A DNA stretch of 64,000 bases from Eubacteriales bacterium (GCA_045595165.1 JAZNZY010000021.1:51382-115381); one strand, 5' to 3'. Shown: positions 21,210 through 55,885, counted from the stretch's first letter. Program-made: numbers and translations. The notes: a model not told the origin generated them from the letters alone.

Positions 21210-21264
21210 ACAAATCAACTCCAAAAAACTAAGGGGAAAAGAGAAATATATACTTAATCAGTTA

Positions 21265-33964: not shown

Positions 33965-33993
33965 TTGACTTTGCTGATCGTTCATTGTATAAT
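33965..33993 (+). promoter_or_regulatory. sigma-A promoter (TTGACT-17-TATAAT)
   Basis: ttgact at 33965-33970, tataat at 33988-33993. Confidence 0.65.
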
Positions 33994-34038
33994 ATGTTGT
34001 TGCCTTGCGCATATTTTAAATGGAAGGGTGGGCGCACA

Positions 34039-34887
34039 ATGAATATCGGAATAGTTCTTGCAGGCGGATTTGCCAAAGGCGCTTACCAGGTAGGTGCGCT
34101 GAAGGCGATACGGGAATTTATCCCTATGGAAGACATAAAATATATAAGCTGTGCATCTATCGGCGCGCTGAACGGATATGCCTTCGCCGCCCAAAAGCTG
34201 GGAAAAGCCCAGGAAATGTGGCAGGGATTTTGCGGCGAGAACGCGGACACCAACGTAATGCGCCTGCTCCGCAGTGATAAACTGCAGCAGATAATTACAG
34301 ACCTCGCCTCCCCCGAGGATAAGCTTTACAGCAAGCTGTATATCGCCCATCTCAACATAAACTCCATGAAGATGGTGTATTCCGAGCTTAATTCTATGCG
34401 TCAGCACACGAGAAAATCCCTTCGGGCGGGAATTGCTTTGCCCGTTTTCAACCGCCCCGTAAAGATAGAAAACGATTATTATTTCGACGGCGGCTTGGTA
34501 GACAATATCCCCGTGTATCCCTTGATGCAGCATAAATTGGATTATATCATCTGTATTTATTTCGACGATTATTGGTACACCTTTGAGGACAGCTATTTCG
34601 ATAACAAGATAGTAAAGATATTTTTCCCCGATCCCACACGGGCAAAGACATCCTTCGTTATCTCCCGTGAAAGCGTGGACAGAATGCTGGAGGACGGATA
34701 CGAGCGTGCCCGCGCCACCTTGAACCGCGTGTTTGAGGAGGGAACGGATAATCTTCCTCATATTTATAAAACCATAACCACTATTAACAGAGAAAATCCC
34801 AAAAAGAAGATCCGTCTTACTACGGATACCATAATCACGGGACTGAATAAAATCGGAAAAAAGATAACGAAAATACAAAAACCGTAA
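34039..34887 (+). CDS. patatin-like phospholipase
   Basis: Start moved to MNIGIVLAGGFAKGAYQVG (oxyanion GGxxxG), which lies downstream of the promoter. Nucleophile elbow CASIG. Catalytic DGGLVDNIP. Confidence 0.8.
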   Translation: MNIGIVLAGGFAKGAYQVGALKAIREFIPMEDIKYISCASIGALNGYAFAAQKLGKAQEMWQGFCGENADTNVMRLLRSDKLQQIITDLASPEDKLYSKLYIAHLNINSMKMVYSELNSMRQHTRKSLRAGIALPVFNRPVKIENDYYFDGGLVDNIPVYPLMQHKLDYIICIYFDDYWYTFEDSYFDNKIVKIFFPDPTRAKTSFVISRESVDRMLEDGYERARATLNRVFEEGTDNLPHIYKTITTINRENPKKKIRLTTDTIITGLNKIGKKITKIQKP

Positions 34888-37121: not shown

Positions 37122-38570
37122 TTAGTCGAAGTAAGCGTCCAGCAGGTCTTCAAGATTGTCATTGAAGGTTGCTTCCTTGGACTGCCAATTGGATGCGAAA
37201 TCGATAGATCCGTTGTTTATGCAGATATTGAACTGATGTGCGGGCCAATCCAGCGCATAAGAATGGATATAACCGAAGTTACAGAGGATACCCTCACGGA
37301 TGATCTCGATCATTTCGATAGAATCCTCATCCTTGGTGTATCTGTTCTGAAGGATTACGGTGTACCATTCGGGAACAACTGCGCGGTAGCTCTGTGCGCA
37401 GAGAGCTTCGGTGATCATACCGATAAACTCAAGGTTGTTCTTGCTGGTTATGGGAACTGCCATAAGAGAATAATCGTCCTCACAGGTGGAGTGGTAGTTT
37501 TCCTGCTCCTCGTTAAACTTGGGCATGGGGAGGATACCGAAGTTGCAATCGTAAGTATTGATAATACTTCCGTTACCCAGCTTAGTGGGAAGGAAGAGAG
37601 CGCGGTTTTCACCGAACATCTTTACGCTTTCAGCCTTGTCTTTTGCTTCGTAAAATTCGTCGGAGCTGTAAACAAGATCATAAACCATCTGGAGTGCGGT
37701 ATAGGTCTTTTCCTGGTTGATGGTGAAATAAGGTCTGCCGTCCGCATCCTTGGTGGTTACGGGGATATCGAAGGCGTCCTGATATACGTCAATCTGAGTG
37801 GTGAGGCAGGATGTATAGCCGTATACCTTGGTATCGGGGTTATCGTCCTTAACGCTGGCGGTGCGGATAACCTCCATCATTTTATCAAAGGTCCAATCGC
37901 CGTCGCGCACAACGTCATAAAGGTTTTCGATACCTGCGTTTTCAGCAAGAGTCTTGTTAAAGAACATACCCTGCATACTTTCCCAGAAAAGGAGGGAAAT
38001 ATCGCCGGAAAGGAGGTAAAGGTTATCGTCGATAGTAAGCTCGTCAACAAGGTCCTGGGACCACCATTCTCTCTCAAGATCAACGTAGGGGATATCGTAC
38101 CAGTCGATAAAGATGCCCTCTGCAATGAGAGTGGGGATAATAGCGGCATAGCCTGCGATAATATCGTAATCCACAGAACCGGTAGCCACGGTATCGCGCA
38201 CGTAATCAATAAAGTCCTCGTGCACGCCCCAGCCGCCGTTTATGGGCTTGGAAACGATATCTACGTTAAAGCGTTCTTCAACAACCGCATCTCTTTCATA
38301 GATAAGGTCTTTTACTGTGGAAAAGCCCAATTCCTCAACGCCGAATTCGTAATCGTTTTCGGTACGCTGAAGAATGGTATATGTCTTTTTGCCCCAATCC
38401 TTTTCGGGCAGGCCGTCCTTTACGTTTGCGCGGTCATCAAAATCCACTTCGCCGTAGGATGCGTCAGTATTGGAAGCATTACCCTGAACGTCGGGATCTA
38501 CGGTGTTACAAGCGCAAAGCACGGAAAGGAGCATAAGTGCTGCAAGTGCAATAGCAAAAATCTTTTTCAT
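37122..38570 (-). CDS. extracellular solute-binding lipoprotein (family 1, LplA-like), orphan
   Basis: Lipobox LLSVLCAC. REWWSQDLVDE and FGILPMPKF motifs parallel those of 32427..33923. Confidence 0.75.
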   Translation of the reverse strand: MKKIFAIALAALMLLSVLCACNTVDPDVQGNASNTDASYGEVDFDDRANVKDGLPEKDWGKKTYTILQRTENDYEFGVEELGFSTVKDLIYERDAVVEERFNVDIVSKPINGGWGVHEDFIDYVRDTVATGSVDYDIIAGYAAIIPTLIAEGIFIDWYDIPYVDLEREWWSQDLVDELTIDDNLYLLSGDISLLFWESMQGMFFNKTLAENAGIENLYDVVRDGDWTFDKMMEVIRTASVKDDNPDTKVYGYTSCLTTQIDVYQDAFDIPVTTKDADGRPYFTINQEKTYTALQMVYDLVYSSDEFYEAKDKAESVKMFGENRALFLPTKLGNGSIINTYDCNFGILPMPKFNEEQENYHSTCEDDYSLMAVPITSKNNLEFIGMITEALCAQSYRAVVPEWYTVILQNRYTKDEDSIEMIEIIREGILCNFGYIHSYALDWPAHQFNICINNGSIDFASNWQSKEATFNDNLEDLLDAYFD

Positions 38571-38605
38571 ATGTTCTGTTTCCCTTCATATATTTACGTA
38601 AATAC

Positions 38606-38634
38606 ATTATATTACGGGTAACGCAAAAAATCAA
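38606..38634 (-). promoter_or_regulatory. sigma-A promoter (TTGATT-17-TATAAT) for the SBP gene
   Basis: Minus strand has ttgatt (38634-38629), a 17-nt spacer and tataat (38611-38606). Confidence 0.6.
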
Positions 38635-40288: not shown

Positions 40289-41164
40289 ATGGCAAAGTTA
40301 TTTAATCAAGGTGTTGCTTTTACGCCGCGCCAGAATTATGAGCGCAAATACAATGCGTCCAGAGCAAATCTGTTGCTTGTGGTTATCGCCACGGCGATAA
40401 ATATGTTTCTGATCGTAAGCGGATCTGATACATACTTCCTTTTTTCCGCATTTATTCCCTATTTTTTAACGACTATAGGAATGGTCCGGTGCGGACTTTT
40501 GCCTCCCGAATATTATGAATATCCCATGGAGGATTATATCTTTTACGATAAATCTCTGTTTGTAGCCCTGCTCATATTTGCGATAATACTTACATCGTTA
40601 TATTTGCTTGCCTGGTTTATGTCAAAGAAAAACCGTGTGGGCTGGCTTATTTTCGCCCTTGTTTTCTTTGGGCTGGACACCGTGGGAATGTTGATATTTA
40701 ACGGCATTGCCGCTGACGGTATAATAGACATCGTGTTCCACGCTTGGGTTATATACTATCTCGTTATGGGTATTATTGCCCACCGCAAACTGAAATATAT
40801 GCCCGAGGAAGCACCTGTTACGGGATTTGAAGCCGTATCCGCCGAAACCGCAGAAGCTCCCGAAGCTGCAGCCGAGCCCGCGCAGAATTCCTCCGTATTA
40901 AGAACAGCCGATAAGGACGTAAAGCACAAGATTTTGCTCCAGAAGCGTATGTTTAATATGGATATTTGCTACCGCAGAGTAAAGCGAGTAAACGAGCTTG
41001 TTATAAACGGCAACGTGTACGATGAATACGAAGCGTTGGCAGAACAGCCTCACACACTGGAAGCCCGTGTTGACGGACATTATATTGTTGCCGCCTATAC
41101 CGGAACACACAGTGTTATTTCGGTTGACGGTCAGCAGGTGGCAAAGAAATTAAGACTTATTTAA
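40289..41164 (+). CDS. hypothetical membrane protein (about 5 TM plus a C-terminal soluble domain)
   Basis: Good RBS (aaaggag). Hydrophobic segments run through about residue 160. No family recognised. Confidence 0.65.
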   Translation: MAKLFNQGVAFTPRQNYERKYNASRANLLLVVIATAINMFLIVSGSDTYFLFSAFIPYFLTTIGMVRCGLLPPEYYEYPMEDYIFYDKSLFVALLIFAIILTSLYLLAWFMSKKNRVGWLIFALVFFGLDTVGMLIFNGIAADGIIDIVFHAWVIYYLVMGIIAHRKLKYMPEEAPVTGFEAVSAETAEAPEAAAEPAQNSSVLRTADKDVKHKILLQKRMFNMDICYRRVKRVNELVINGNVYDEYEALAEQPHTLEARVDGHYIVAAYTGTHSVISVDGQQVAKKLRLI

Positions 41165-41196
41165 GTTGGAAAAATTATTCCCGAGGTATTACAATA

Positions 41197-41715
41197 ATGA
41201 AAAAAGCACTTGTATTATCATTAATTTTATGTGTTATCTTATCCGCGGCGGGATGCTCTTTGCTTAACCCCGCGCCCAAGGATTTTGAAGTGGCGGATTA
41301 TAATATGGTTATAACCGCAGACGAAGGATTTACAGAGGACACCGGCGGCGAATGGAGCCTGCAAATAACCAATTACAAAACCTATATCAGCGTAATGCCC
41401 TTTACCTACGAAGAGTTGGGCGATATAACTCCCGAGGAGATATATTCTCTGCAAAACGAGGATATTTTCACCCGCAGAGAGGACACCGAGGTTCTGGAAG
41501 AGGAAACCAAGAAAACGCAAAACGGCAAGACCATTATCCGCACTGTCTTTTCCGCCGTGCTGGACGGGGATGAAAACTACTACGTATGTTATCTGGTAGA
41601 TATTCCCGAAAGCGAGCTTTGCGCTTGGGTGTTGGTTACCACCCTGCCCGAATATTATGATTCCATCAAGGAAAACTCGGACACCATAGTAGCAAGTCTT
41701 GCTGTAAAAGAATAG
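41197..41715 (+). CDS. hypothetical lipoprotein
   Basis: Lipobox LSAAGC. 172 aa. No family recognised. Confidence 0.65.
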   Translation: MKKALVLSLILCVILSAAGCSLLNPAPKDFEVADYNMVITADEGFTEDTGGEWSLQITNYKTYISVMPFTYEELGDITPEEIYSLQNEDIFTRREDTEVLEEETKKTQNGKTIIRTVFSAVLDGDENYYVCYLVDIPESELCAWVLVTTLPEYYDSIKENSDTIVASLAVKE

Positions 41716-43527: not shown

Positions 43528-44933
43528 AACGCACCTCCCGAAAGCACGTAACTGCCCTCTTTGTCCTTTAATATCTTTTCCTTGGGGATACCTGTGTGTT
43601 TGTGAATAATATCCAGAACTCTGGGTGCGCAGAAACCGCCCTGACATCTGCCCATACCCGCGTTGCAACGGCGCTTCACGCCATCGATACTGACAGGGGG
43701 AATGGGGGTTTTGAAGGTGGCGTTTATCTCGCCCTCGGTTATGGTTTCGCAACGGCAAATAACTCTGCCGTAGGCGGGGTCTTTTTTAATGAGCGCGTTC
43801 TTTTCTTCCGCGTTAAGCTCCTTGAAGCGGATAACGGAACGAGAATCTATATGGGAACCCTTTTTGTTCAAGGTAAGTCCTGCTTCACCCAACAGCTCGC
43901 ACACGTACTCTGCGATAGCGGGGGCAGAGGCAAGACCGGGGGATTTTATTCCTGCAAGAGAAAGGAAGCAGGGTGAAACAAAACGTATGATAAAATCTTC
44001 GTTATTTGTATTTGCGCGCATACCTGCGAAATTTCGTATATTGGTGGAAAGATTGAGGGTAGGCACGCTTTTGTAAGCGGCGTTGCGGACGAAATCCAGT
44101 CCCTGCGCCGTGGTGGAAATATCGGTTTTATCCGAAGTTCCCTCCGCATTGGGGCCCACGATAATATTTCCGTGAACGGTGGGAGAGATAAGCACGCCCT
44201 TGCCGTTTTTATTGGGGCATTGGAACACCACGGTGTTTACGATACCGAAAGCGGTCTTATCCAGCAGGAAATATTCACCGCGGTTGGGCTTAAGAACGTA
44301 ATCAGGCTCACGCACGTAGCCTTCTACCTCGGCGCAGTTTACGCCTGCCGCCGCAACGATGAATTTTGCCTTGTACTCGCCTTTTTCGGTAATTACGGTG
44401 TTTTCCTTTATATCCGTAACCGCTTCGCTTAAATGCAGTTCAAGCCCGTTTACTACTGCGGTTTCCGCAAAAGCGAGGGCATATTCCCAAGGGGAGATAA
44501 CTCCCGCCGTGGGAGCGTAAAGGGCAGAGGTCGCCTCATCGGATATATTGGGCTCCAGGGCTTTCAGTTCATCACGATCGAGTATTCTCAAGCCGGGAAC
44601 TCCGTTTTCCACACCGCGGGCATATAACTCTTTTACGGTTTTGTCGTCCTCTTCGCCAAAGGCGCAAACGACAGATCCCGTTTCCTTAAAGGGAACGTCC
44701 AGCTTTTTGCAAATCTCGTGGGCAAGCTCGTTTCCCCGCACGTTAAGACGGGCGGTAAGTGAGCCGGGCACGGGATCGTACCCTGCGTGGATTATTGCGG
44801 AATTTGCTTTTGTGGTGCCCGTAGCGATATCATTTTCTTTCTCGAACAGCGCCACGCGAAGATTATATTTTGTAAGTTCATACGCCGCGGCTGATCCGAT
44901 AACACCGCCGCCGATAATTATAACGTCAAACAT
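43524..44933 (-). CDS. FAD-dependent oxidoreductase, GlpA/GlpD-like, with a BFD-like [2Fe-2S] domain
   Basis: MFDVIIIGGGVIGSAAAYEL. C-terminal ICRCETITEGEI plus CQGGFC. Confidence 0.85.
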   Translation of the reverse strand: MFDVIIIGGGVIGSAAAYELTKYNLRVALFEKENDIATGTTKANSAIIHAGYDPVPGSLTARLNVRGNELAHEICKKLDVPFKETGSVVCAFGEEDDKTVKELYARGVENGVPGLRILDRDELKALEPNISDEATSALYAPTAGVISPWEYALAFAETAVVNGLELHLSEAVTDIKENTVITEKGEYKAKFIVAAAGVNCAEVEGYVREPDYVLKPNRGEYFLLDKTAFGIVNTVVFQCPNKNGKGVLISPTVHGNIIVGPNAEGTSDKTDISTTAQGLDFVRNAAYKSVPTLNLSTNIRNFAGMRANTNNEDFIIRFVSPCFLSLAGIKSPGLASAPAIAEYVCELLGEAGLTLNKKGSHIDSRSVIRFKELNAEEKNALIKKDPAYGRVICRCETITEGEINATFKTPIPPVSIDGVKRRCNAGMGRCQGGFCAPRVLDIIHKHTGIPKEKILKDKEGSYVLSGGAL

Positions 44934-44950
44934 TTTAATCCCCCAAGAAC

Positions 44951-44975
44951 AAAAAAGTCCGTTTTCGGACTTTTT
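44951..44975 (-). terminator. terminator hairpin of the 261-aa surface protein gene, 12-17 nt upstream of the glpA-like RBS
   Basis: Minus strand reads aaaaagtccg-aaaa-cggactttttt. Confidence 0.7.
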
Positions 44976-45018
44976 GCTCTATGTTAAATTATTATTCTTC
45001 CATTGTTGGGTATTATTT

Positions 45019-45097
45019 CGGGGACCCCGAAAAAGCGTTTTTAACAGAACACATACGTCCGTTACGCATTACACACCTAAAAACCTTTTTTGGGGTG
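45019..45097 (-). repeat. Rep-C-like copy with an expanded centre
   Basis: cggggaccccgaaaaagcgttttt...ttttttggggtg. Confidence 0.55.
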
Positions 45098-45099
45098 TT

Positions 45100-45885
45100 T
45101 TATTTCTTCTTTTTAATAACAACTACTACCACTACAACTGCGATAACAACTGCTGCGATAACGATACCGATGATAAGACCGGTGTTGCCGCCTTCTTCTT
45201 TATCGGAAGGTTCTTCGGAATTGCCTACTGCGGGAACGGAGGTGTCTTCTTCGGACTCTTCCTTGGAGGGCTCTTCGGAGGGTTCTTCGGAAGGCTCTTC
45301 GGAGGGCTCTTCGGAGGATTCTTCGGGAACTTCCTCGGGAACGTAGTTGGGATCAAGCTCAAAGGTGTTAAAGGTGAGCACTGCACCGTCGCAAGTGAAA
45401 ACAGTGAACTGGGTGATCTCTACGTAGCCGTCTGCGTTTACGCCCACAAGCTCTGCAAGCTGTTCAAAAGAAACAGCGCCCTTGTAGGAACCGGAAAGAA
45501 GGTCGCCGGTGCCGCTTTCGATATTATCGCCCATAAACTTGTGAATGTAGTTGTCGCCGCCGTTAATACGGATGCTGGTCTTACCAATGTCAAAGGAAAG
45601 GTCGTATACAAGGTAGGTGCCTTCGCCAACAAGGATAGGCGCGGGAAGAACTGCGTCTGCCCAAGGCCAGGTTCCTGCTGCAGAGCCGGATACAACGGTA
45701 ACGCCTTCGGTTGTTTCAATGGTAATTTCCGTTCCGTTAACGGGGGTATTTACCCAAAGATCTTTGCAGTTATCGAAGATATCATACTTTTCTTCAATAA
45801 CAACGGGCTCGTCTGCGGAAACGGGAATTGCGAAAAATGCGCAAACGAGAGAAACAATAATAAGTACGCTTAAAAGCTTTTTCAT
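45100..45885 (-). CDS. secreted surface protein, acidic PSEE linker, C-terminal TM anchor
   Basis: Signal peptide MKKLLSVLIIVSLVCAFFAIPVSA. (EEPS)n linker. Tail VPAVGNSEEPSDKEEGGNTGLIIGIV...KKKK. Confidence 0.8.
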   Translation of the reverse strand: MKKLLSVLIIVSLVCAFFAIPVSADEPVVIEEKYDIFDNCKDLWVNTPVNGTEITIETTEGVTVVSGSAAGTWPWADAVLPAPILVGEGTYLVYDLSFDIGKTSIRINGGDNYIHKFMGDNIESGTGDLLSGSYKGAVSFEQLAELVGVNADGYVEITQFTVFTCDGAVLTFNTFELDPNYVPEEVPEESSEEPSEEPSEEPSEEPSKEESEEDTSVPAVGNSEEPSDKEEGGNTGLIIGIVIAAVVIAVVVVVVVIKKKK

Positions 45886-45923
45886 GGTTTTTACTCCTTT
45901 AAAGTGGTTTTTTCAGTACTGCA

Positions 45924-45952
45924 ATTATACAATATCCCTTTCGGAAAGTCAA
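45924..45952 (-). promoter_or_regulatory. sigma-A promoter (TTGACT-17-TATAAT)
   Basis: Minus strand has ttgact (45952-45947), a 17-nt spacer and tataat (45929-45924). Confidence 0.7.
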
Positions 45953-45964
45953 CAATATTAAAAA

Positions 45965-45996
45965 TAAAAATGCCCGATATTTCACGGGCATTTTTG
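45965..45996 (-). terminator. rho-independent terminator of the 434-aa surface protein gene
   Basis: atgcccg-tgaaatat-cgggcat plus a T-run on the minus strand. Confidence 0.8.
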
Positions 45997-46023
45997 TGCT
46001 AAATATAAAATATCAATTATCGA

Positions 46024-47328
46024 TTACTTCTTTTTCTTTGCAACGATAACTACAACTACAACAACTGCAATAACAACTACTGCTACAACGATACCGATGA
46101 TAAGACCGGTGTTGCCGCCTTCTTCCTTATCGGAAGGTTCTTCGGAATTGCCTACTGCGGGAACGGTGGTGTCTTCTTCGGAAGGCTCTTCGGAGGGTTC
46201 GTCGGAAGGTTCTTCAGAGGGCTCTTCAGAGGGTTCTTCGGAGGGTTCGTCGGGCTGTTCAGCGGGAACTGCGTAGTAAACTACTGCGCCGGTTTCGTGA
46301 GTCTGCTCTGCGAAGTTGTAGCCTGCGAAGTATACGATGTCGCCTGCAACGAGAGCTGCGAGAGCTTCTTTGTTTGCAGCAGCTTCGGTGCTTTCGCCGT
46401 GAACTGCGAATGCGATGTCGCCTTCCTGAACGTCTGCAAATGCGAATTCATAGTCGCCGTCTGCAGCCTTAACTTCTACTACGGAGTACTGACCTTCGGT
46501 TTCGGTGGGTCTGAGAAGTACGCATGCGGACCAAGCTACGTTGTATGCAGCGAGGTTGGTGGGATCGGTGATGATGGTGTTGGAATCGGTTACGATAGAC
46601 TTGTTGAAGGGAACGTGCTTAATGAACTTTGCACCTGCGGGAATTTCAACGATAGGCTCGATCTCATTAAGATCTATGGATTCTTCCTGGCTTACTTCGC
46701 CGATTTCAGGACCGCCGGCAGACTTAAGGCTTGCGCCAACCTCGGTAAGACCAACCCATTCCCAGCAAACCTTGACGTCCCAGTCGTTACCGGTCTGACC
46801 GTGAGCGCCCATAAAGAAGGATACGGAAACGTATTTTGCGTTAACGGGAGCAGCGAGGTCGATAACTACTTCGCGCTGGAAGGACTGAGTAATGTCTTCG
46901 ATAGTGCTGTCCATGGTGTAAGAGAATTCGTCGAACGCATTACCGTCTACGGAAGTACCAACGATAAGATCGCCATCGGTAGGAAGACCGATCATAGCGT
47001 TTGCGTAGCAGAACCAGTAAAGAGTAATGGTGTCGATGCTCTGAACGGAATCAAGTTCGAAAACGATGGTGCACTCGGTGGGAGTACCGGTGGTGCATGC
47101 CTTATTCTGAACAAGAAGGATACCGGCTTTGTTAAAGTCACGGGCTGCAGCGTCAGCTTCGGAAAGGATTGCGCCGTCAAAAAGCTGAGCGGGATCGTCA
47201 GATGCGAGAGCTTCAACGTTGTCGCCTTTGAATTCAACGGATACAACGTTTGTTTCTGCTGCTGCGGGTATCAGAAAAAGAACTGAAACGAGAGCAACTG
47301 CGAGAATTGCGCATAAAAGCTTTTTCAT
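46024..47328 (-). CDS. secreted surface protein: discoidin/F5-8-type-C-like domain, unknown domain, PSEE linker, C-terminal TM anchor
   Basis: Start moved to MKKLLCAILAVALVSVLFLIPAAA (ATG 47328), because the promoter -10 at 47371-47376 lies inside the 20-codon ORF-track extension. LFDG...WVGLTEVGA is discoidin-like. The tail is the same as in the 45100 gene. Confidence 0.8.
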   Translation of the reverse strand: MKKLLCAILAVALVSVLFLIPAAAETNVVSVEFKGDNVEALASDDPAQLFDGAILSEADAAARDFNKAGILLVQNKACTTGTPTECTIVFELDSVQSIDTITLYWFCYANAMIGLPTDGDLIVGTSVDGNAFDEFSYTMDSTIEDITQSFQREVVIDLAAPVNAKYVSVSFFMGAHGQTGNDWDVKVCWEWVGLTEVGASLKSAGGPEIGEVSQEESIDLNEIEPIVEIPAGAKFIKHVPFNKSIVTDSNTIITDPTNLAAYNVAWSACVLLRPTETEGQYSVVEVKAADGDYEFAFADVQEGDIAFAVHGESTEAAANKEALAALVAGDIVYFAGYNFAEQTHETGAVVYYAVPAEQPDEPSEEPSEEPSEEPSDEPSEEPSEEDTTVPAVGNSEEPSDKEEGGNTGLIIGIVVAVVVIAVVVVVVIVAKKKK

Positions 47329-47370
47329 AGGGTTTTTTGCTCCTTTAAATAATAATATTTTGGTGAAGTG

Positions 47371-47399
47371 ATTATACACTATTTGCAAGAGAAAGTCAA
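47371..47399 (-). promoter_or_regulatory. sigma-A promoter (TTGACT-17-TATAAT)
   Basis: Minus strand has ttgact (47399-47394), a 17-nt spacer and tataat (47376-47371). Confidence 0.7.
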
Positions 47400-47407
47400 C
47401 AACAAAA

Positions 47408-47436
47408 ACAAAAATGTCCGTGTTTTACGGACATTT
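47408..47436 (-). terminator. rho-independent terminator of the 448-aa surface protein gene
   Basis: atgtccgt-aaaac-acggacat plus a T-run on the minus strand. Confidence 0.8.
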
Positions 47437-47455
47437 CTGCTTATATTTCTCGCTA

Positions 47456-48802
47456 TTATCTTTTCTTTTTAACAACAATTACCACTACAACTACAATGGC
47501 AGCTACTGCAATTACAGCTACTACGATACCGATAATAAGGCCTGCGCCGACAACACTTGTCTGTTCGCCGGAAACGGGTTCGGATCCTTCGGTGTCCTCA
47601 TCGGAAACGTCTGCTGCGGGTTCGGATTCATCGGTTGCGGGTTCGGATTCGTCGGTGGGTTCGGATTCTTCGGAGGGCTCTTCGGAAACGTCTTCGGAGG
47701 GCTCTTCGGAAGCTTCGCCGTTATCGGGAGTAGCGGTGTTATCTATAAAGTAAACAACTGCGCCTCTTTCAAAGGACTGTTCCTCAAAATTATAGCCTGC
47801 GAAGGTAACGGTGTCCCCTGCAACAAGAGCGTTGAGCGCAAGTCTGTTTGCCTTGGTGCCGTCTGCATCATCATCGCCGTGAACGGAAAGAACCATATCA
47901 CCCTCTGCCGCATCGGCAAAAACAAAGGTTTCGCTGCCGTTTACCCATTCAACAGCCACTACCTCGTAAACGCCTTCGGTTTCGGTAGGTCTGATAAGTG
48001 CGCAGGAGGTCCACTTAACATTGAAATCCTGCATAGTTGCGGGATCGGTAATGATAGTGTAAGAGCCGGTGGTGATAGAGGTGTTGAACTTAGCGTGCTT
48101 GAGTGCTACGTGTCCTTCGGGAATTTCTACGATAGGCTCGATCTGATCGAGGGGAGTGTTGTCCTCGCTTACTTCCTCATAGCCGCCGTCAAGAACTTCA
48201 TCTACCTCAAGGCCTGCGCCGACTTCGGTAAAGCCGACCCATTCCCAAAGAGGGCACCACCAGTCGCTGTATCCGTGGGGGCCGAATTCAAAGGTAACAG
48301 AAACGTATTTTGCCTTTACGGTCTGACCCAGTCTTATAGTGGTATCAAGCTGAAAGGAGGTATCGGGGTCGGTTTCGCCCTCGAAATCGTATGCGCCGAT
48401 CTCGGTGTAAATGTCGCCGTCTGCGGAATAGCCTATGATAAGGTTATTGTTAACGGGCAGACCGATTATTGCCATGTGATACACGTACCAGGTGATATAA
48501 ACGGTGTCTATATCCTGAAGGGAATCAAGCTCGAAATACATGGTTGCAATGGTGTTTTCGGTATCGTTCATATCGGTGTTCTGAAGCAGAACGATGCCTT
48601 CCTTGGTGAAGTCACTGGCGTTCGCATTTTCTTCGGAAAGGATCTTGTTATCGTAAAGAAGGGTAAGATCTGCTCCTGCGCGAACCTTTACGTCGCCCTC
48701 AAACCAAACCTTGGTTACGTTCGCCTTTGCATCTGCGGGGATAGCAAGCAAAGCGCAAACAACGGCGAGAACGATAAGTACGCTTAAAATTCTTTTTTTC
48801 AT
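47456..48802 (-). CDS. secreted surface protein, paralogue of 46024..47328
   Basis: Signal peptide MKKRILSVLIVLAVVCALLAIPADA. Same two-domain layout. Acidic SEEPSE linker. TM plus a KKKR tail. Confidence 0.8.
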   Translation of the reverse strand: MKKRILSVLIVLAVVCALLAIPADAKANVTKVWFEGDVKVRAGADLTLLYDNKILSEENANASDFTKEGIVLLQNTDMNDTENTIATMYFELDSLQDIDTVYITWYVYHMAIIGLPVNNNLIIGYSADGDIYTEIGAYDFEGETDPDTSFQLDTTIRLGQTVKAKYVSVTFEFGPHGYSDWWCPLWEWVGFTEVGAGLEVDEVLDGGYEEVSEDNTPLDQIEPIVEIPEGHVALKHAKFNTSITTGSYTIITDPATMQDFNVKWTSCALIRPTETEGVYEVVAVEWVNGSETFVFADAAEGDMVLSVHGDDDADGTKANRLALNALVAGDTVTFAGYNFEEQSFERGAVVYFIDNTATPDNGEASEEPSEDVSEEPSEESEPTDESEPATDESEPAADVSDEDTEGSEPVSGEQTSVVGAGLIIGIVVAVIAVAAIVVVVVIVVKKKR

Positions 48803-48833
48803 TGTTTTACTCCTTTTTTGAACACAGAAATTT

Positions 48834-48937
48834 AACGATGAACTATGAACTATGAACTATGAACGAATGGTTGATTTTTGTTCTGCGAACAAAAATCTTC
48901 CGAAGTTCCTCGTTCATCGTTTCTAGTTCCTCGTTTC
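48834..48937 (-). repeat. Rep-B full element B2 (heptad arm - hairpin - heptad arm), within the 5' leader of the 47456..48802 gene
   Basis: aacgatgaactatgaactatgaactatgaacga-atggttg-atttttgttctgcgaacaaaaat-cttccgaag-ttcctcgttcatcgtttctagttcctcgtt. It is the reverse complement of B3. Confidence 0.85.
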
Positions 48938-48968
48938 CAAACGCTCTGCGTTATTTTTTACTGCTCCA

Positions 48969-48997
48969 ATTATACGCTGTTTGCATAAAAAAGTCAA
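48969..48997 (-). promoter_or_regulatory. sigma-A promoter (TTGACT-17-TATAAT), about 160 nt upstream of the ATG
   Basis: Minus strand has ttgact (48997-48992), a 17-nt spacer and tataat (48974-48969). Confidence 0.65.
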
Positions 48998-49042
48998 CGG
49001 ATTTTTAAATGTAAATTTTTATTACCCGATATGCATAATTAT

Positions 49043-49070
49043 TTACAATATATTAATTTTGTGTTATAAT
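49043..49070 (+). promoter_or_regulatory. sigma-A promoter (TTACAA-16-TATAAT, TG-extended) for glxK
   Basis: ttacaa at 49043-49048, tgt-tataat at 49062-49070. Confidence 0.5.
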
Positions 49071-49092
49071 GTAAGGAAAGAGGTGGTAAAAG

Positions 49093-50175
49093 ATGAATTT
49101 TTTGCTTATACTCGATTCTTTTAAGGGAAGCATATCCTCTTATAACGCCGCAAAAGCTCTTAAAGAGGGCTTGGGAGGCGGAGAGATTGTCCCTTTTTCC
49201 GACGGAGGCGAGGGATTTGCCGAATGTGTCGAATACCTCTGCGGAGGTAAAAGAATATGTTTTCCCTCCTTTGACAGCTACGGAAAAGAAATATCCTCTT
49301 ACTATCTGCGTATCGGCGATACGGCGGTGATCGAAACCGCGCTGGCGGACGGGCTTATTACAGTGGGGGAAAACCACCCGAACATTATATACGCCAACTC
49401 CTTCGGCACGGGACACACAATTAAAAAAGCTCTTGAAGACGGGTGCAAAAAGCTGATAATCGGATTCGGCGGAAGCGCCGTAAACGACGGAGGCGCAGGT
49501 GCGCTTTGCGCCTTGGGTGCCCGCATTGTCGGCGGAAAAGGGCTTACCGCCCTGGCGGGAGAATGGGCAACGAGTATTGACCTTGAGAATCTCACCCCTC
49601 TCCTGAAGGAAGCAGAAATTATATTCGCCTGCGACGTGGACAACCCCTACTGCGGGGAAAAAGGCGCATCTATGGTGTTTTCACCCCAAAAAGGGGCAGA
49701 TGCCGCCACGGCTTTGCGTATGGAAAAGAGCCACAGGAAGTTTGCCGAATTCCTTTTCCGCGCTACGGGAAAGGATGTTTCCCACATACCCGGCGCAGGG
49801 GCGGCAGGAGGGCTTGCAGGTGGAATTATGGCTGTATGTGAGCCGAAAATACAAAGCGGGTTTGACGTGCTTTCAAGCCTTTGCTCGCTTAAAGAGAGAA
49901 TTTCCCGCGCAGACGTGATTATTACGGGAGAAGGCAAAACTGATTCTCAGACTTTAATGGGAAAGCTTCCCTTGCGTGTAACGGCGCTTGCAAAGGAAAT
50001 GGACAAAAAGGTCGTCTGTGTTTCGGGTATGATAACCGAAGAGGGCAAAAATCTGGGAGCAGACCTTTATATACCCCTTTCCCACGGGGATATTACTCCG
50101 CAGATGACCATGGCAGACCCGAGAAAATATCTTATTAACGCAGGAAAACAAATTAAAAATATATACGAGGTATGA
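49093..50175 (+). CDS. glxK: glycerate kinase
   Basis: MNFLLILDSFKGSISS..., GFGGSAVNDGGAG, ITGEGKTDSQTLMGK. Confidence 0.88.
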   Translation: MNFLLILDSFKGSISSYNAAKALKEGLGGGEIVPFSDGGEGFAECVEYLCGGKRICFPSFDSYGKEISSYYLRIGDTAVIETALADGLITVGENHPNIIYANSFGTGHTIKKALEDGCKKLIIGFGGSAVNDGGAGALCALGARIVGGKGLTALAGEWATSIDLENLTPLLKEAEIIFACDVDNPYCGEKGASMVFSPQKGADAATALRMEKSHRKFAEFLFRATGKDVSHIPGAGAAGGLAGGIMAVCEPKIQSGFDVLSSLCSLKERISRADVIITGEGKTDSQTLMGKLPLRVTALAKEMDKKVVCVSGMITEEGKNLGADLYIPLSHGDITPQMTMADPRKYLINAGKQIKNIYEV

Positions 50176-51161
50176 AAATGGATACTAACCAAACCGCACA
50201 GACCCCCGAAATCACCCAAAACGAGCCCGTGGCAGTAAAAGCTCCCGCTAAAAAGCGCCGCCGCAGAAATTCCTGGTGGGGCGTGACTCTTTGCGTATTT
50301 CTGGCGTTCGGAGTATTTGTTTCCGCCGCCGCAGGAACGGGATTTTTGCTTTTGAGAAACGCCGTTGCAGGCGATATCGTACATACCGTGGTTGAAAAGA
50401 CCGACGTGCTCTCCCTTGAAATCGGCGGTACTACGGTTGTGGAAAAGGTAGAGGAAGTATTAAAATCCTCGGGCAACGAAACCCTCGCTTCCATGACCAC
50501 CGAGGAGATACGTGCTTTTGCGGAAAACGCAGGACTTGACGAAGCGCTTAAGGGATTGCTTGACCAAGCCCAGGATTATCTTACGGGGAATGCCAACAGC
50601 TTTGAAATAACTCCCGAGCAGATACTGGTTCTGGTTGAGGACAACAAGCAGAATATTTACGATGCAACGGGATATGAGATAACCGAAGATGACCTTAAGC
50701 AGATAGAAGAGGTGCTTGAGGAACACACCGAAACCATTAATCAGGCGGCGGAGGAGGTTCTTACCAATCCCACCGTAAAGACTACTATGACCACCGTTAA
50801 CGTGGTGATAAGTCCCTATATCCCCATCGCCTGCTTTGCTGTATGCGCAGTATGTGTTTTGCTTATGATCCCCTGCCTGCGCAGAAAGGAAGCGGTGTTC
50901 GTATTCTCCGGTATGCCCGCGCTGTTTTTGGGAGCCGCGCTTACCGTAGTATATGCACTTTCCTCCACCATTACCGAATTCGTGGTAGCCCGGATATATA
51001 TGCCCGCCACGATGCTGACGGTGGCAAGAACCGTTTTATCCGTAATTTTCGAGCCTATCCTTAAAGCGGGCATTATCGCCGCATCGGTAGGCGTAGTATT
51101 TATAATAATCCACATAATTCTTGCGGTTGTTTTAAAGGTAAGACACGCAAAAAAGGCTTGA
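50172..51161 (+). CDS. hypothetical membrane protein
   Basis: ATGA overlap with the glxK stop. Basic KKRRRRN followed by a TM, a soluble segment of about 170 aa, then 3-4 C-terminal TM segments. No family recognised. Confidence 0.65.
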   Translation: MKMDTNQTAQTPEITQNEPVAVKAPAKKRRRRNSWWGVTLCVFLAFGVFVSAAAGTGFLLLRNAVAGDIVHTVVEKTDVLSLEIGGTTVVEKVEEVLKSSGNETLASMTTEEIRAFAENAGLDEALKGLLDQAQDYLTGNANSFEITPEQILVLVEDNKQNIYDATGYEITEDDLKQIEEVLEEHTETINQAAEEVLTNPTVKTTMTTVNVVISPYIPIACFAVCAVCVLLMIPCLRRKEAVFVFSGMPALFLGAALTVVYALSSTITEFVVARIYMPATMLTVARTVLSVIFEPILKAGIIAASVGVVFIIIHIILAVVLKVRHAKKA

Positions 51162-51180
51162 TGACACAGGAGGCACATCA

Positions 51181-52143
51181 ATGGCACAATTAACAAACGG
51201 ACACGAGCAGGCAAGAGCCCTTACGAAAGGTCTTTTTAAGGCGGTTTTGGGCAAGGAAAAGGAAGCGGTGCTTTTGGTCACCGCATTTCTCGCAGGGGGA
51301 CACGTGCTGATCGAGGATGTGCCCGGCGTGGGTAAGACCACCCTTGCTTCCGCTTTGGCAAGACTTTCCGGTCTGGATTACACCCGCATACAGTTTACGC
51401 CCGACGTAACCCCTTCCGACATAACCGGTTTTAATATGTTTGATAAGCGCTCCGGCGATTTTGTGTTCCGCCCCGGCGCGGTAAGCACGGATATTTTCCT
51501 TGGGGACGAAATAAACCGCGCATCCCCCAAGACACAGTCCGCGCTTCTTGAGTGTATGAACGAGGGCACCGTCACCGTTGACGGCGAGATACACCCTCTC
51601 CCCAAGGTGTTTACGGTTATTGCAACCCAGAACCCTATGGGATTTGTAGGTACCTATCCCCTGCCCGAAGCCCAGGTTGACAGATTTTGTATGAGATTTT
51701 CCATGGGCTACCCCACCTTTGAGGCGGAAATGCGTATTGCCGCAGGTATGACCCACGAAAACACCCTGCCCACACTTACTCCCGTAACGGATGCGGAGTC
51801 TATTCTGGCTATGCGTGAGGAAGTAAAAAAGGTTGCGGTAGACGAAGAAATATACAAATACGCCGTTTCACTCATAACCGCCACCCGTAACAACAAATAC
51901 ATATCTCTGGGCGCATCTCCCCGCGGAAGCGTAATGGTTGTGCGCCTTGCGAAAGCATACGCATATCTGCAGGGCAGAGATTACGTTTTGCCCGAGGATA
52001 TTCACGCTATGTTCGTTCCCTGCATAAACCACAGAATAACTCTTTCTCAGGAGGCAAAGCGTCAGTTCCTCTCCGTTGAGGACGTGCTGAACGCTATTCT
52101 TAAGGAAACGGATATTCCCCACCGCGGAAAAGGCAGAATATGA
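51181..52143 (+). CDS. MoxR family AAA+ ATPase
   Basis: Walker A DVPGVGKTTLA. FTPDVTPSDITG. Walker B FLGDEINRA. RBS aggagg. Confidence 0.9.
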   Translation: MAQLTNGHEQARALTKGLFKAVLGKEKEAVLLVTAFLAGGHVLIEDVPGVGKTTLASALARLSGLDYTRIQFTPDVTPSDITGFNMFDKRSGDFVFRPGAVSTDIFLGDEINRASPKTQSALLECMNEGTVTVDGEIHPLPKVFTVIATQNPMGFVGTYPLPEAQVDRFCMRFSMGYPTFEAEMRIAAGMTHENTLPTLTPVTDAESILAMREEVKKVAVDEEIYKYAVSLITATRNNKYISLGASPRGSVMVVRLAKAYAYLQGRDYVLPEDIHAMFVPCINHRITLSQEAKRQFLSVEDVLNAILKETDIPHRGKGRI

Positions 52144-53402
52144 AAAAAAGCGAAAAGTTTGGTGAAACACGGCTTATAAAACAGCCCTTTTACCCCGTGC
52201 CCTCTCTTTTGTTCCCCTTTTACGGGGCGGCGGTGTTCGGACTTTGCTGTTATGCCATAATCCGTAAAAACACACCTATGGGAATAGCCGCCACCTTTTT
52301 GATGGTGCTTCCCGTTATATCACTTATTTACGCCTTTATATGCTTTTGCGGAATAAGCGCGGAATTAAGCTTTGATAAGCAATTCCTGCGCAAGGGCGAA
52401 AGCGCCCACGCTACCCTTACGGTATACAATTATTTTCCCATTCCCCTGCCCGGACTTACGGCGGCACTGTATCTTCCCAAAGAGGAAAAGGATGGGTACG
52501 TATACACCCGCATCCCCGTCAAGAGCAAGACGGGTGTAACTATGGGCGGATTGCGGGCGGTAACAGCCGTAAAGCAGGTATCCTTCGGGCTGGCGGGAAG
52601 ATTTACCGTATACTGTAAAAAGCTTTCCGTCCACGATCCGCTGGGCTTGTTCAGAATAGTAAGCAGGACGGAGTTCACGGTTGATATGCCCGTAATTCCC
52701 GTAGAAGGCAGAAAGACCGATCAGCTTCGCACCGCAAGCGGTACGGGCGAGGGGGCGGACAGAAACCGCCGCGGCGATGACCGTGACGAGGTGTTCGAGA
52801 TAGCAGATTACGCTCCCGGGGACAGCCTTAAGGATATTCACTGGAAAAGAAGCGCAAGGGAGGAAGAATTGCAGATAATCCGCTTTGCTTCCCCTAAGGA
52901 AAAATGCCATTGCGTGCTTTGCGATACGGGAGATTACCTCGCCTGCGGCACGGAAAATAAAAATGACAAAAACCCCGCGCTCCTGGATGCGGTTCTGGAA
53001 ACCGCCTACGGAATGTGTATATCCCTTTCCTCGGAGGGTGACAGCGTTTTGCTGGCCTGGCGGGACGGAAAAGAGGATATAGGTGTGACCGCTTCTATGG
53101 AGGAGGGCTTTATTTCCCTTTGCAAAAGCGGATACTTACCACTTGGCACGGGCAAACGGATAGATCCCGTTATTTTAAGCGAGGCGGACGCGGTAACGCT
53201 GGTTACAGCCGCCGTTAACGAGGATACCGCCGCACAGATTATCGCTTTGCAGACCGAAGCGCCAAATATTAAAGGCATTGCGGTAATGGTGTGCGCTCCC
53301 GAGGGAAGCGCTCCCATAACCGACGAAAATATAATTAAAAAGCTGGAAAGCGCAGGAATTATCATAGGATTTTCCTTGGCAGAGAAGGGAGGAAAGGTAT
53401 GA
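52140..53402 (+). CDS. DUF58 domain protein (with N-terminal TM segments)
   Basis: DUF58 signature IADYAPGDSLKDIHWKRSAREEELQIIRF. ATGA overlaps with both neighbouring genes. Confidence 0.8.
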   Translation: MKKSEKFGETRLIKQPFYPVPSLLFPFYGAAVFGLCCYAIIRKNTPMGIAATFLMVLPVISLIYAFICFCGISAELSFDKQFLRKGESAHATLTVYNYFPIPLPGLTAALYLPKEEKDGYVYTRIPVKSKTGVTMGGLRAVTAVKQVSFGLAGRFTVYCKKLSVHDPLGLFRIVSRTEFTVDMPVIPVEGRKTDQLRTASGTGEGADRNRRGDDRDEVFEIADYAPGDSLKDIHWKRSAREEELQIIRFASPKEKCHCVLCDTGDYLACGTENKNDKNPALLDAVLETAYGMCISLSSEGDSVLLAWRDGKEDIGVTASMEEGFISLCKSGYLPLGTGKRIDPVILSEADAVTLVTAAVNEDTAAQIIALQTEAPNIKGIAVMVCAPEGSAPITDENIIKKLESAGIIIGFSLAEKGGKV

Positions 53403-55885
53403 ATTTCCGCCCCAATGCAACAAGAAAATACCGTATTTTTGAATCCGCCTCAACGGCAATGGGCTTTTTCGCCTGCCTTATACTGTGTATGGTTACCGTT
53501 TTCGGAATTGCGGGGTACGCAGAGCAGACCATCCTGCCCGAAATAAGCGTTGGCACGGTTTGGTTCGCTTCCGCGGCGGTGATCGCGGCAACGGGAACAG
53601 CGTTTCTGTTTTCCGCAGAATGGATAGTTTACCCCGCCCTCGCTTTGGGCGGAGCGGGAATTTCTCTTTTGTGCTTTATTCCCTTAAGCGAAGCCGTAAC
53701 GGAAAAATTAAACAAGATAGGCGAAGAAATATACAAATTCGAGCCTGAATACTATATCCCATATCACGATTGGGAGCTTACTCTGGTTGCAATACTGCTG
53801 GCATCCGTCTGCGCAGTACTGCTTACCCACTTTATGTTAAGATGTAAAGTGCTCGTCCCCGTTTTGCTTACCTCCGGGGTAACGCTGGGACTGTTCGTTT
53901 CCCTTGAGCGAAACGAAAGCATACACTTTTTTGTAATGATCCTTTGTATTGCCGCAATGCTGTGCGTTGCCGTGCAGGGCAAAGGCGGAAAGGCTATGGG
54001 AAGCGTTATACCCATAACCAGGATCGGCGTAAAGACGTTGGCGTTTTTCCTTGCCGCCGCCATAGTGCTTATACCCGTGGCATCCGACGAGGCGTTTTCA
54101 AAATCCGTAATGGACACTATATCTCAGCTTACGGGTATAAAGCCGCCCACGGTTGCACCCGGCGGATTCGGGGACGCCAGCAGCGACGTGTCTATGGACG
54201 GATACGAGCAGTTTATGAACGACCTTGAGGAAAAGCAATCCCAGACCGACCTTGAGGACATAGAGTTTGATAACGTACTTTTATACATCGTGTCCGGCGC
54301 CGATGACGGCGGGGATATGTTCCTCCGCCGCCGTATACACTATGAATACGGTAATAACGCTTGGACTTTATCTACTTCAACCTCTGAGGATCTGACAGAC
54401 GATTCCTTCAGGCTTCTTGCGGATGCCCAAAGAGGAGATCTTACTGCCCTGCCCAGTTCCCGTGATTTTATTACAGTTGCAGGCGTGGTCAAGCCTCTTT
54501 ATCCTGCCATACCTGCGGGAAGCACGCATATCTCCAACCCCAACGAAGAGGCATTTTATGATCTGGACGGGGACGGGGTAAAGGAAAGATACCCTGCTGT
54601 TACCACCCACACCTACCGTTTTCAAGATATTGAATTCGATGACGAGTGGTTTGATTTCCTGCGCAAAAACACCGATATCGACTGGGGCTACGAAGCCTTT
54701 GGTATGAAGGATTACCAAAACCCCGAGTTTGTAATTTCCGGTGATGAATTGCTGGATAAGGAATTGCGTGCCCTTATGCTGGATCTTCTTATGCGCTACT
54801 GCGGTTATCAGACCTACGATGAATGGCTGGCTGCGGAGGATTCGGTTATAGATGCTATCGAAGCCGTACAGATATACCTTTCCGAAACCAAATATTACAC
54901 AATGAACCCACAGATGTCCGATCGGTACGAAAATTACGATCACGAGAAGGACAGTATATACAACTTCCTGTTTAACACCGGCGAGGGATACTGCGTACAG
55001 TTTGCCTCCACCGCCGCACTGCTGCTTCGCTCCATCGGCATAAACACCCGTTACGTTACGGGATATTCTTCCAGAGGCGCGGACTTCAGCGGAAACAGGC
55101 ATATTTACGATTCCAACTCCCACGCCTGGTGCGAGGTGGAGCTTTACGGTTACGGCTGGGTGCCCTTTGAAATGACCTACGCTGCTATGCAAAACTCCAT
55201 AGGCTCCGAAGGACCTACCCTCGATCCTCCCAATTTCCCGGAGGAAGTGTCAACGGAAGAGCCTTCCGCCGACGAAAGTGAGGAAATAAGCGAAGAGGAA
55301 TCAAGCGAAGCCGAGAGCAGCGAAGAGAAATCAAGCGAAGACTCTGCGGTTTCCGACGTATCCGATGACGGCTCTTTGGTTGAAAGTGTTGGCGAAATGT
55401 CGGCAGACCTGCCGAAAAACAATAAAAAAGCGATTATCTATTGTATTTGTATCGCTTTTTGTGGTATAATCCTTACGTTGACCGCCGCACTTATATACCG
55501 CCGCAACGAAAAACGGCGCAAAAACACCCTTAAAACCAGAGAGAAATACTCTCTGGGCGAAGGGGATGCGGAAAAAGGTCTTTTGGAACTGCATTCACAG
55601 CACATAAAGCTTTTGCGTCTGAAAGGCTTTACCCCCATCAAGGGCGAAAAATATCCCGAATATATCAAGCGTGTGTGCAGGTCCGCGCCCGATATGCCCA
55701 ATCCCAAGTTTGTAATGGAATACTTCCGCAAAGCCGAATTCGGCGGTGTCTGCACCAAGGAAGAGCTGGCGGCGGCAGGAAAGCATATGCTTTTGTTGAA
55801 CGATTACGTTTACACCACTTTAAAGGGATTTAAAAAGCGGAAGGCTTATTTTGACGGACTGCTTACAAAGCCAAAGCAAAAATGA
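53399..55885 (+). CDS. polytopic membrane transglutaminase-like protein
   Basis: About 6 N-terminal TM segments. Core GEGYCVQFASTAALLLRS...HAWCEVELYGYGWVPFE. Acidic Ser/Glu linker, one more TM, and a cytoplasmic tail. Confidence 0.85.
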   Translation: MNFRPNATRKYRIFESASTAMGFFACLILCMVTVFGIAGYAEQTILPEISVGTVWFASAAVIAATGTAFLFSAEWIVYPALALGGAGISLLCFIPLSEAVTEKLNKIGEEIYKFEPEYYIPYHDWELTLVAILLASVCAVLLTHFMLRCKVLVPVLLTSGVTLGLFVSLERNESIHFFVMILCIAAMLCVAVQGKGGKAMGSVIPITRIGVKTLAFFLAAAIVLIPVASDEAFSKSVMDTISQLTGIKPPTVAPGGFGDASSDVSMDGYEQFMNDLEEKQSQTDLEDIEFDNVLLYIVSGADDGGDMFLRRRIHYEYGNNAWTLSTSTSEDLTDDSFRLLADAQRGDLTALPSSRDFITVAGVVKPLYPAIPAGSTHISNPNEEAFYDLDGDGVKERYPAVTTHTYRFQDIEFDDEWFDFLRKNTDIDWGYEAFGMKDYQNPEFVISGDELLDKELRALMLDLLMRYCGYQTYDEWLAAEDSVIDAIEAVQIYLSETKYYTMNPQMSDRYENYDHEKDSIYNFLFNTGEGYCVQFASTAALLLRSIGINTRYVTGYSSRGADFSGNRHIYDSNSHAWCEVELYGYGWVPFEMTYAAMQNSIGSEGPTLDPPNFPEEVSTEEPSADESEEISEEESSEAESSEEKSSEDSAVSDVSDDGSLVESVGEMSADLPKNNKKAIIYCICIAFCGIILTLTAALIYRRNEKRRKNTLKTREKYSLGEGDAEKGLLELHSQHIKLLRLKGFTPIKGEKYPEYIKRVCRSAPDMPNPKFVMEYFRKAEFGGVCTKEELAAAGKHMLLLNDYVYTTLKGFKKRKAYFDGLLTKPKQK

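Follow-up and report, generated by a model that had tools for sequence, protein, structure and literature searches.

A stretch of 64,000 nucleotides from an Eubacteriales bacterium (GCA_045595165.1, JAZNZY010000021.1:51382-115381), referred to here as the window and numbered from its first letter, carries three consecutive genes on its minus strand, P1, P2 and P3. Their products are probably surface proteins in which a glycan-binding tip stands on a disordered stalk and is held by a permanent type-I membrane anchor, each gene being a separately expressed cassette. Stalked, membrane-anchored, lectin-like surface proteins are a known kind in Gram-positive bacteria, and these three are new members of it, in which two of the domain families are undescribed and the stereotyped anchor module has the look of a sorting signal.

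Architecture and expression signals of P1-P3

P1 (45100-45885, 261 amino acids), P2 (46024-47328, 434 amino acids, counted from the ATG of MKKLL) and P3 (47456-48802, 448 amino acids) all lie on the minus strand. A 454-amino-acid open reading frame (ORF) is listed for P2, and its upstream TTG start falls within the promoter. The three proteins have the layout described in the original prediction, that is, a signal peptide of MKK(L/R) type, an ectodomain, a run of (E/D)EPS repeats, a transmembrane stretch of 22-24 aliphatic residues and a basic end, KKKK or KKKR. The repeats of the linker are periodic at 12 nt in the DNA (repeat family D1), and no other ORF with such a C-terminal end was found in the window.

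In P2, domain 1 (46714-47256, minus strand, residues 25-205) is followed by domain 2 (46255-46683, minus strand, residues 216-358), by an acidic (E/D)EPS linker that is predicted to be disordered (46120-46254, minus strand, residues 358-412) and by the tail (46027-46119, minus strand), which reads GGNT, then GLIIGIVVAVVVIAVVVVVVIVA (23 residues, with a GxxxG motif), then KKKK. An AlphaFold2 model built with 33 homologues shows two well-folded domains, with a predicted local distance difference test (pLDDT) score above 85 in most blocks, a linker whose low pLDDT (<50) marks it as disordered, and a helix at residues 410-432. P3 is built in the same way, with a signal peptide (residues 1-26), a CBM32-like domain (about 27-200), an unassigned domain (about 213-357), an acidic linker (358-417) and the tail VVGAGLIIGIV...KKKR (418-448). 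P2 and P3 are 49% identical and are, as first proposed, paralogues. P1 consists of a signal peptide (1-24), an ectodomain (25-182), a linker (183-231) and the tail GGNTGLIIGIV...KKKK (232-261). Its ectodomain had been called unrelated to those of the other two, and a profile-profile comparison with domains 1 and 2 of P2 indeed found no similarity. Lipoproteins were considered and rejected on inspection, as no L-[AS]-[GA]-C lipobox precedes the cysteine of P1 or P3 and P2 is without such a cysteine.

Each gene would be transcribed alone, from a near-consensus promoter of the sigma-70 type, and would end at its own terminator. The product would be exported by the Sec system through its N-terminal signal peptide, in a host that belongs to the uncultured monoderm Clostridia of animal gut or rumen, and cleavage of the signal peptide probably follows an A-x-A motif (between AAA and E in P2, ADA and K in P3, and VSA and D in P1). 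The folded ectodomain would remain on the outside, with domain 2 at the base next to the stalk in P2 and P3, and with P1 presenting a different domain of its own. The acidic Pro/Ser/Glu linker, of 45-60 residues, would form a disordered stalk across the wall, and the Val/Ile-rich GxxxG helix of 22-24 residues would stay in the membrane, where the cytoplasmic KKKK would act as a stop-transfer signal under the positive-inside rule.

The promoter-like sites are exact matches to TTGACT-N17-TATAAT, of which the 64-kb window holds four, against 0.00 expected from 100 dinucleotide-preserving shuffles. Three of the four stand upstream of P1 (45924-45952), P2 (47371-47399) and P3 (48969-48997), all on the minus strand, and an AAAGGAG Shine-Dalgarno sequence precedes the ATG in all three genes alike. 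Two related contigs, L119 and L120, keep the position of the P2 site and have an equivalent site upstream of their P3 orthologues, and the region upstream of P1 can be aligned with that of P2. An intrinsic terminator, formed by a hairpin with a T-run, is predicted after each gene on the minus strand. That of P3 lies at 47406-47442 (-22.5 kcal/mol, z -7.05 versus shuffled controls), that of P2 lies at 45966-45995 (-15.6 kcal/mol, z -4.61 on the same comparison), and that of P1 is a bidirectional hairpin about 125 nt past the stop codon (44952-44975; -17.4 kcal/mol, z -5.28, likewise). In L119 and L120 there is again one promoter and one terminator per gene, which gives comparative support to independent transcription. 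The exact promoters, the strong hairpins and the conservation of this layout agree with the earlier claim of three independently transcribed minus-strand genes, and we predict three monocistronic units. The near-consensus promoters suggest that each cassette is expressed strongly and separately.

P3 has in addition a 5' leader of about 165 nt (48803-48968, minus strand). Read directly from the sequence, it contains TTCATAG three times, a small hairpin (TTTTGTTCGCAGAACAAAA) and the Shine-Dalgarno sequence AAAGGAG. It is partly conserved in L120 and missing in L119, and a scan of 44000-50000 against Rfam gave no match to it (just two sub-threshold chance matches). This unusually long leader may be regulatory.

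Ectodomain families and proposed cassette exchange

The assignment of domain 1 of P2 and P3 to a divergent beta-sandwich of the F5/8-type-C/CBM32-like kind is supported at the level of the predicted fold. In the AlphaFold2 model the block that holds P2 domain 1 has pLDDT values mostly of 84-96, with 67-71 at residues 171-190. Foldseek returned 109 matches to it in the PDB at E <=1e-3 (best E-value 5e-7), and most of the top-ranked ones are CBM32, F5/8-type-C or discoidin modules. Target template-modelling (TM) scores were 0.6-0.72 across many CBM32 structures, reaching 0.70-0.72 with E ~1e-5 for the Clostridium perfringens CBM32 structures 2j7m, 2w1s and 2j1e. At the level of sequence, PF00754 matches below threshold in six of ten family members (best E 9.7e-5); P2 domain 1 itself scores 13.9 bits (E 0.059), below the Pfam gathering score of 28.2, and the full-length P2 and P3 sequences give no PF00754 match. 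Distant homologues (P0083-P0094) carry PF00754. The discoidin-like first domain of the original prediction was therefore recovered as a fold, with a weak PF00754 signal that misses the Pfam threshold. Domain 1 has the same beta-sandwich fold as the CBM32 and F5/8 type C modules of PF00754, and differs from them in its sub-threshold sequence similarity and in not being joined to a glycoside hydrolase. Because a CBM32/discoidin-like module would stand at the tip, P2 and P3 most likely bind a glycan from the host, the diet or another microbe.

Domain 2 of P2 and P3, of about 140 amino acids, is an undescribed domain family. Modelled alone with 45 sequences, it was predicted by AlphaFold2 with a pLDDT of 93.4 and a predicted TM score of 0.87, in a mixed alpha/beta topology. 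The original prediction had left it unassigned, and Pfam, PDB-sequence, PDB-fold and viral-fold searches were all negative. There was no Pfam match in any of 18 members and nothing significant in a PDB profile search (best E 0.04), nor with Foldseek against the PDB (best E 0.19, TM <0.35) or against BFVD (best E 0.13). The N-terminal region of sialate O-acetylesterase, which gave the PDB profile value of 0.04, was rejected as a relative at that E-value. A profile search of a word-indexed database found four proteins only, none of them an annotated relative. Few positions of the domain are conserved, among them an invariant Gly pair, a nearly invariant N and P, and VHG in most members; in domain numbering the conserved residues are N48, P59, V68, G76, G88, A107, L111, G114 and G121. 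The domain always adjoins the linker. The N-terminal domains with which it is combined in other proteins are of at least three further kinds, none of which has a Pfam match.

The ectodomain of P1 is a third, unrelated and undescribed domain family, for which no Pfam or PDB relative was found. Its members are surface proteins of about 260-300 amino acids that are 24-46% identical and share conserved W, WP, GSGD and Y positions. They were found by exhaustive HMMER search only, as a word-indexed search with the P1 ectodomain gave nothing.

P1 seems to be a recent addition to the locus. In L119 (7985-9404) and L120 (11481-12849), the syntenic region contains P3-like and P2-like genes only, with P1 absent, and in L120 the P2 terminator hairpin leads directly to the DAO gene; P1 would thus be an extra cassette in this genome, since the locus of its relatives has two genes with DAO next. 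The last 239 nt of P1, which encode the linker and helix, are 85% identical in DNA to the 3' end of P2 (repeat family D2), the upstream terminator and promoter region of P1 can also be aligned with that of P2, and the signal-peptide DNA of the two genes is similar (repeat family D5). These similarities fit growth of the locus by duplication of whole cassettes, in which terminator, promoter, signal peptide, linker and helix would have been copied together and the ectodomain exchanged.

The C-terminal tail as anchor or sorting signal

Whether the tail is a plain type-I anchor or an unrecognised sorting signal had been left undecided in the original prediction. We favour the plain anchor, because the tail has no invariant signature, because P3 carries GAG in place of NTG, and because NTGLIIGIV occurs in helices of opposite topologies. 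The alternative is that the tail is a cleaved sorting signal, either a relaxed variant of the Ruminococcus-type NPXTG signal or a new signal for a membrane protease or transpeptidase, and that after export the protein loses its helix and becomes covalently bound to a lipid or to the cell wall. We consider this unlikely.

A tail confined to this locus would have refuted a sorting signal, but a search found it on many other proteins. It recurs on hundreds of otherwise unrelated proteins in gut Clostridia, and it occurs several times per genome, with three copies here and three loci each in the metagenome-assembled genomes (MAGs) RGIG321 and SRP315200_co1_264. The tripartite layout in multiple copies, and the sharing of the tail alone between proteins, are what a cleaved signal would lead one to expect. 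In other lineages, moreover, homologous ectodomains have C-terminal ends of the PxTGD sortase type. Of eighteen tails that fit a sortase-type pattern, 16 have a true end of the PxTGD type, and the other two (P0053 and P0025, a database protein 100% identical to P3) are ordinary transmembrane tails that fit through a match in the linker.

Several observations weigh against a permanent anchor bearing a glycan-binding tip. C-terminal sorting signals have been given eight descriptive attributes (Haft, bioRxiv 10.1101/2023.06.07.544157), and the tail shows seven of them (1, 2 and 4-8), namely its C-terminal position, several copies, a transmembrane helix, a basic cluster, signal peptides on the same proteins, sharing of the tail only and homologues with other signals. 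The tail is also in exact register with NF033846, the NPXTG anchor model: in the relative P0154, the x-T-G, a 21-residue helix and KKKK correspond to model positions 3-30. P0154 and a second relative, P0184, score 15.7 and 14.2 bits against this model, below its cutoff of 23.5, and cover all of its positions except Asn-Pro. One member of the P1 family ends NPATGVIIGIV...KKKK, and three loci end GPNTGLIIGIV, on the same helix. The ectodomains are less well conserved than the helix, and this could reflect recognition of the helix by a partner protein beyond anchoring. Finally, the putative glycan binding is deduced from similarity of fold. The in-register matches and the NPATG and GPNTG variants lead us to think that the tail probably shares ancestry with an NPXTG sortase-type signal.

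Against cleavage stands above all the lack of a nearly invariant signature residue. Haft's third attribute, a nearly invariant signature motif, is the one that the tail does not show: the pre-helix consensus is G-[GS]-N-T-G, and among 120 distinct tails its four positions are 59-71% conserved (G 59%, G/S 62%, N 66%, T 71%) and vary among orthologues. The Thr is present in 19 of the 27 tails of P2 and P3 orthologues, and is lost in the other eight and in P3 with the rest of the tail kept. Variants before the helix in these orthologues include NAG, NPG, GAG, GVG and KLG, and FPW or WLW stands at the helix start in some aligned relatives, with the helix itself and the terminal KKKK retained. In P3 itself the pre-helix sequence is VVGAG, with helix and basic end unchanged, so that an enzyme dependent on Thr-Gly could not act on it. 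The Asn-Pro-x-Thr-Gly signature of NF033846 is found neither in P1 and P2, which have GGNTG, nor in P3. Asn stands at the first pre-helix position in three of 120 distinct tails, Pro does not rank within the eight most frequent residues of the second position, and Asn-Pro is present in only one of about 230 tails. In NCBIfam, P1-P3 have no match at E <=1, and neither in P1-P3 nor in ten other tail-bearing proteins did any sorting-signal model of NCBIfam or Pfam reach its threshold. A metagenome scan for NPxTG[LV]IIGI gave no C-terminal tails. Most of its 49 matches are one helix at the start of a membrane-protein ORF of about 316-328 residues, which we take to be of the Na/Pi-cotransporter type, and the remaining ones are in short or unrelated ORFs.

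The distribution of the motif NTGLIIGIV points the same way. Across 185,579 species-representative genomes it gave at least 119 matches in at least 118 loci, where by our estimate chance alone would give about 9 matches in DNA. Sixty of the matches listed are C-terminal type-I tails; in about 50 of those listed a basic cluster precedes the helix or a long extracytoplasmic domain follows it, which is the opposite topology. Among the matches listed, the opposite-topology helices come from Nocardia, Chloroflexi, Lachnospiraceae and others. In many phyla the motif is strongly over-represented at the start of single-pass helices of both topologies; PKKS or PKKK precedes it in proteins of Nocardia, in small Chloroflexi proteins with LLCCCC and in proteins of Lachnospiraceae. 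As it heads helices of both topologies in unrelated phyla, we regard NTGLIIGIV as a generic, favoured start of a helix (an N-cap with GxxxG) rather than a specific recognition site. Type-I tails with this motif are also found in actinomycetes, in one Bacteroidales MAG and in one methanogen (archaeal) MAG, a range too broad for one dedicated enzyme.

No candidate enzyme was found among the ORFs of the window scanned against Pfam. These were about 50, nearly all the non-overlapping ones of at least 150 amino acids, and none matched a sortase, exosortase, rhomboid or CPBP family. Regular-expression and NCBIfam scans found neither a TLxTC motif nor an LPXTG-like C-terminal end in the 64-kb window, and the earlier statement that it has no LPXTG motif and no sortase or exosortase gene agrees with these scans. 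Canonical sortase substrates also coexist with the tail in one MAG and look different from it. In a single 8-kb block of MAG RGIG10101 (L036, JAGCTF010000072.1), one ORF ends in IPQTGD, a short helix and KKRSF, of the sortase type, and another in KNNTGLIIGIV...KKRKK.

The tail can be compared with several described systems. Like NF033846 (Rumino_NPXTG), it lies at the extreme C-terminus, in the same register, with a helix of about 21 residues before the basic cluster in relatives. It differs in that P1 and P2 have Gly-Gly or Gly-Ser, and P3 has Val-Val, where the model has Asn-Pro, and in that its Thr is not conserved. The tails of P0154, P0184 and P0103 have sub-threshold matches to NF033846 and to NF041738 (GG_III-CTERM, 'GGIII-like transmembrane region'), and curated models for similar C-terminal regions accordingly exist already. 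LPXTG and PxTGD signals (TIGR01167, Gram_pos_anchor) are likewise tripartite and follow a low-complexity, wall-spanning linker, and the same ectodomain families carry either type of end; the tail, however, is without Pro-x-Thr-Gly-Asp/Glu, its helix has more residues and is much richer in aliphatic ones (the hydrophobic run averages 24.2 residues versus 21.8 in sortase-type ends, whose helix is of about 20 residues), and it ends in poly-Lys rather than KVRx or RRR. The signals of the GlyGly-CTERM/rhombosortase system (TIGR03501; PMC3237569) also combine a Gly-rich motif, a helix and a basic cluster, in many copies on unrelated proteins whose families alternate with LPXTG-type ends, but the NCBIfam scans gave no match of the tails to this model and no rhomboid was found among the scanned ORFs of the window. 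Gram-positive surface proteins with hydrophobic tails, for example ActA of Listeria, combine a Sec signal peptide and an extracellular domain with a single C-terminal helix that has a short basic end and is retained as the anchor. P1-P3 have no sequence relationship to these, and their anchor is a highly stereotyped module reused on many proteins. Overall, the anchor module probably either descends from a signal of the sortase type or came to resemble one by convergence, and it is probably reused as a 3' cassette.

A further explanation is that the Gly-zipper helix (GLIIGIVAGVV) is mainly an assembly module, by which the ectodomain proteins associate with one another or with a common partner into a coat or complex, anchoring being secondary. 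GxxxG is present in 153 of 231 tails, the helix is near-identical in proteins with unrelated ectodomains as well as in those with ectodomains of 45-70% identity, and the strong promoters suggest abundant proteins, all of which would suit such a role. The identity of the helix follows equally well, however, from recombination or concerted evolution of the 3' cassette, as the similarity between the 3' ends of P1 and P2 illustrates; the FPW and WLW orthologues are without the Gly zipper, and the locus has no conserved partner gene beside it. We hold this explanation to be improbable. The boldest interpretation of the locus is that it contains a sorting domain, new or relaxed, that belongs to the Clostridia of gut and rumen (derived from NPXTG, served by a different or relaxed enzyme, replacing LPXTG-type anchoring and present on dozens of proteins per genome), a new fold in domain 2, or both, and this seems to us unlikely. 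The permanent type-I anchor thus remains the reading that we prefer.

Genomic setting and significance

The window is an ordinary Firmicute chromosome, with genes for PolC, ispG, dxr, cdsA, uppS, frr, pyrH, RseP, UvrAB and acetate kinase. We reject a horizontally acquired island for P1-P3, as their guanine-cytosine content (0.46-0.51) is unremarkable beside that of the window (0.479) and relatives keep the locus in synteny. The three genes are flanked by a divergent glycerate kinase gene and by a pair encoding a DAO/BFD protein and a pyridine-nucleotide-disulphide oxidoreductase, which resembles glycerol-3-phosphate dehydrogenase genes. The bidirectional hairpin at the end of P1 stands just 19 nt before the start codon (ATG at 44933) of the DAO/BFD gene of this pair, and may also be a leader terminator for that gene. 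Adjoining the locus at 50172-55885 is a cluster of a membrane protein, a MoxR AAA ATPase, a DUF58 protein and a TgpA-like transglutaminase, which is conserved in L119 and L120, and a second transglutaminase-core protein is encoded at 1250-3433 of the window. The fourth exact TTGACT-17-TATAAT site (33965-33993, plus strand) overlaps the listed TTG start of a patatin-like ORF (33985-34887), and because of this overlap the real start of that ORF is probably further downstream. Six other ORFs of the window (4528-5400, 19866-21224, 32427-33923, 37122-38621, 40289-41715 and 61423-62130) had no Pfam match at the thresholds used.

Full-length relatives of P1-P3 all come from MAGs of uncultured Clostridia or from metagenomes, many of them from the ruminant gut, and those that carry a label from their source are called "hypothetical protein". 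P1-P3 are thus part of a large, unannotated repertoire of surface proteins in the uncultured Clostridia of gut and rumen. Both the 140-amino-acid domain next to the stalk and the domain of P1 type could be described as new families. For searches aimed at sorting signals the tail is a caution, in that a tripartite, multi-copy C-terminal module may have most of the expected attributes and yet be read most simply as a reusable membrane anchor; should the helix be cleaved after all, one of the major lineages of the gut would prove to have an anchoring pathway not described before. The lectin-like tip offers a first lead on function, namely on the way in which these bacteria, abundant yet uncultured, might adhere to glycans of plants, hosts or microbes.

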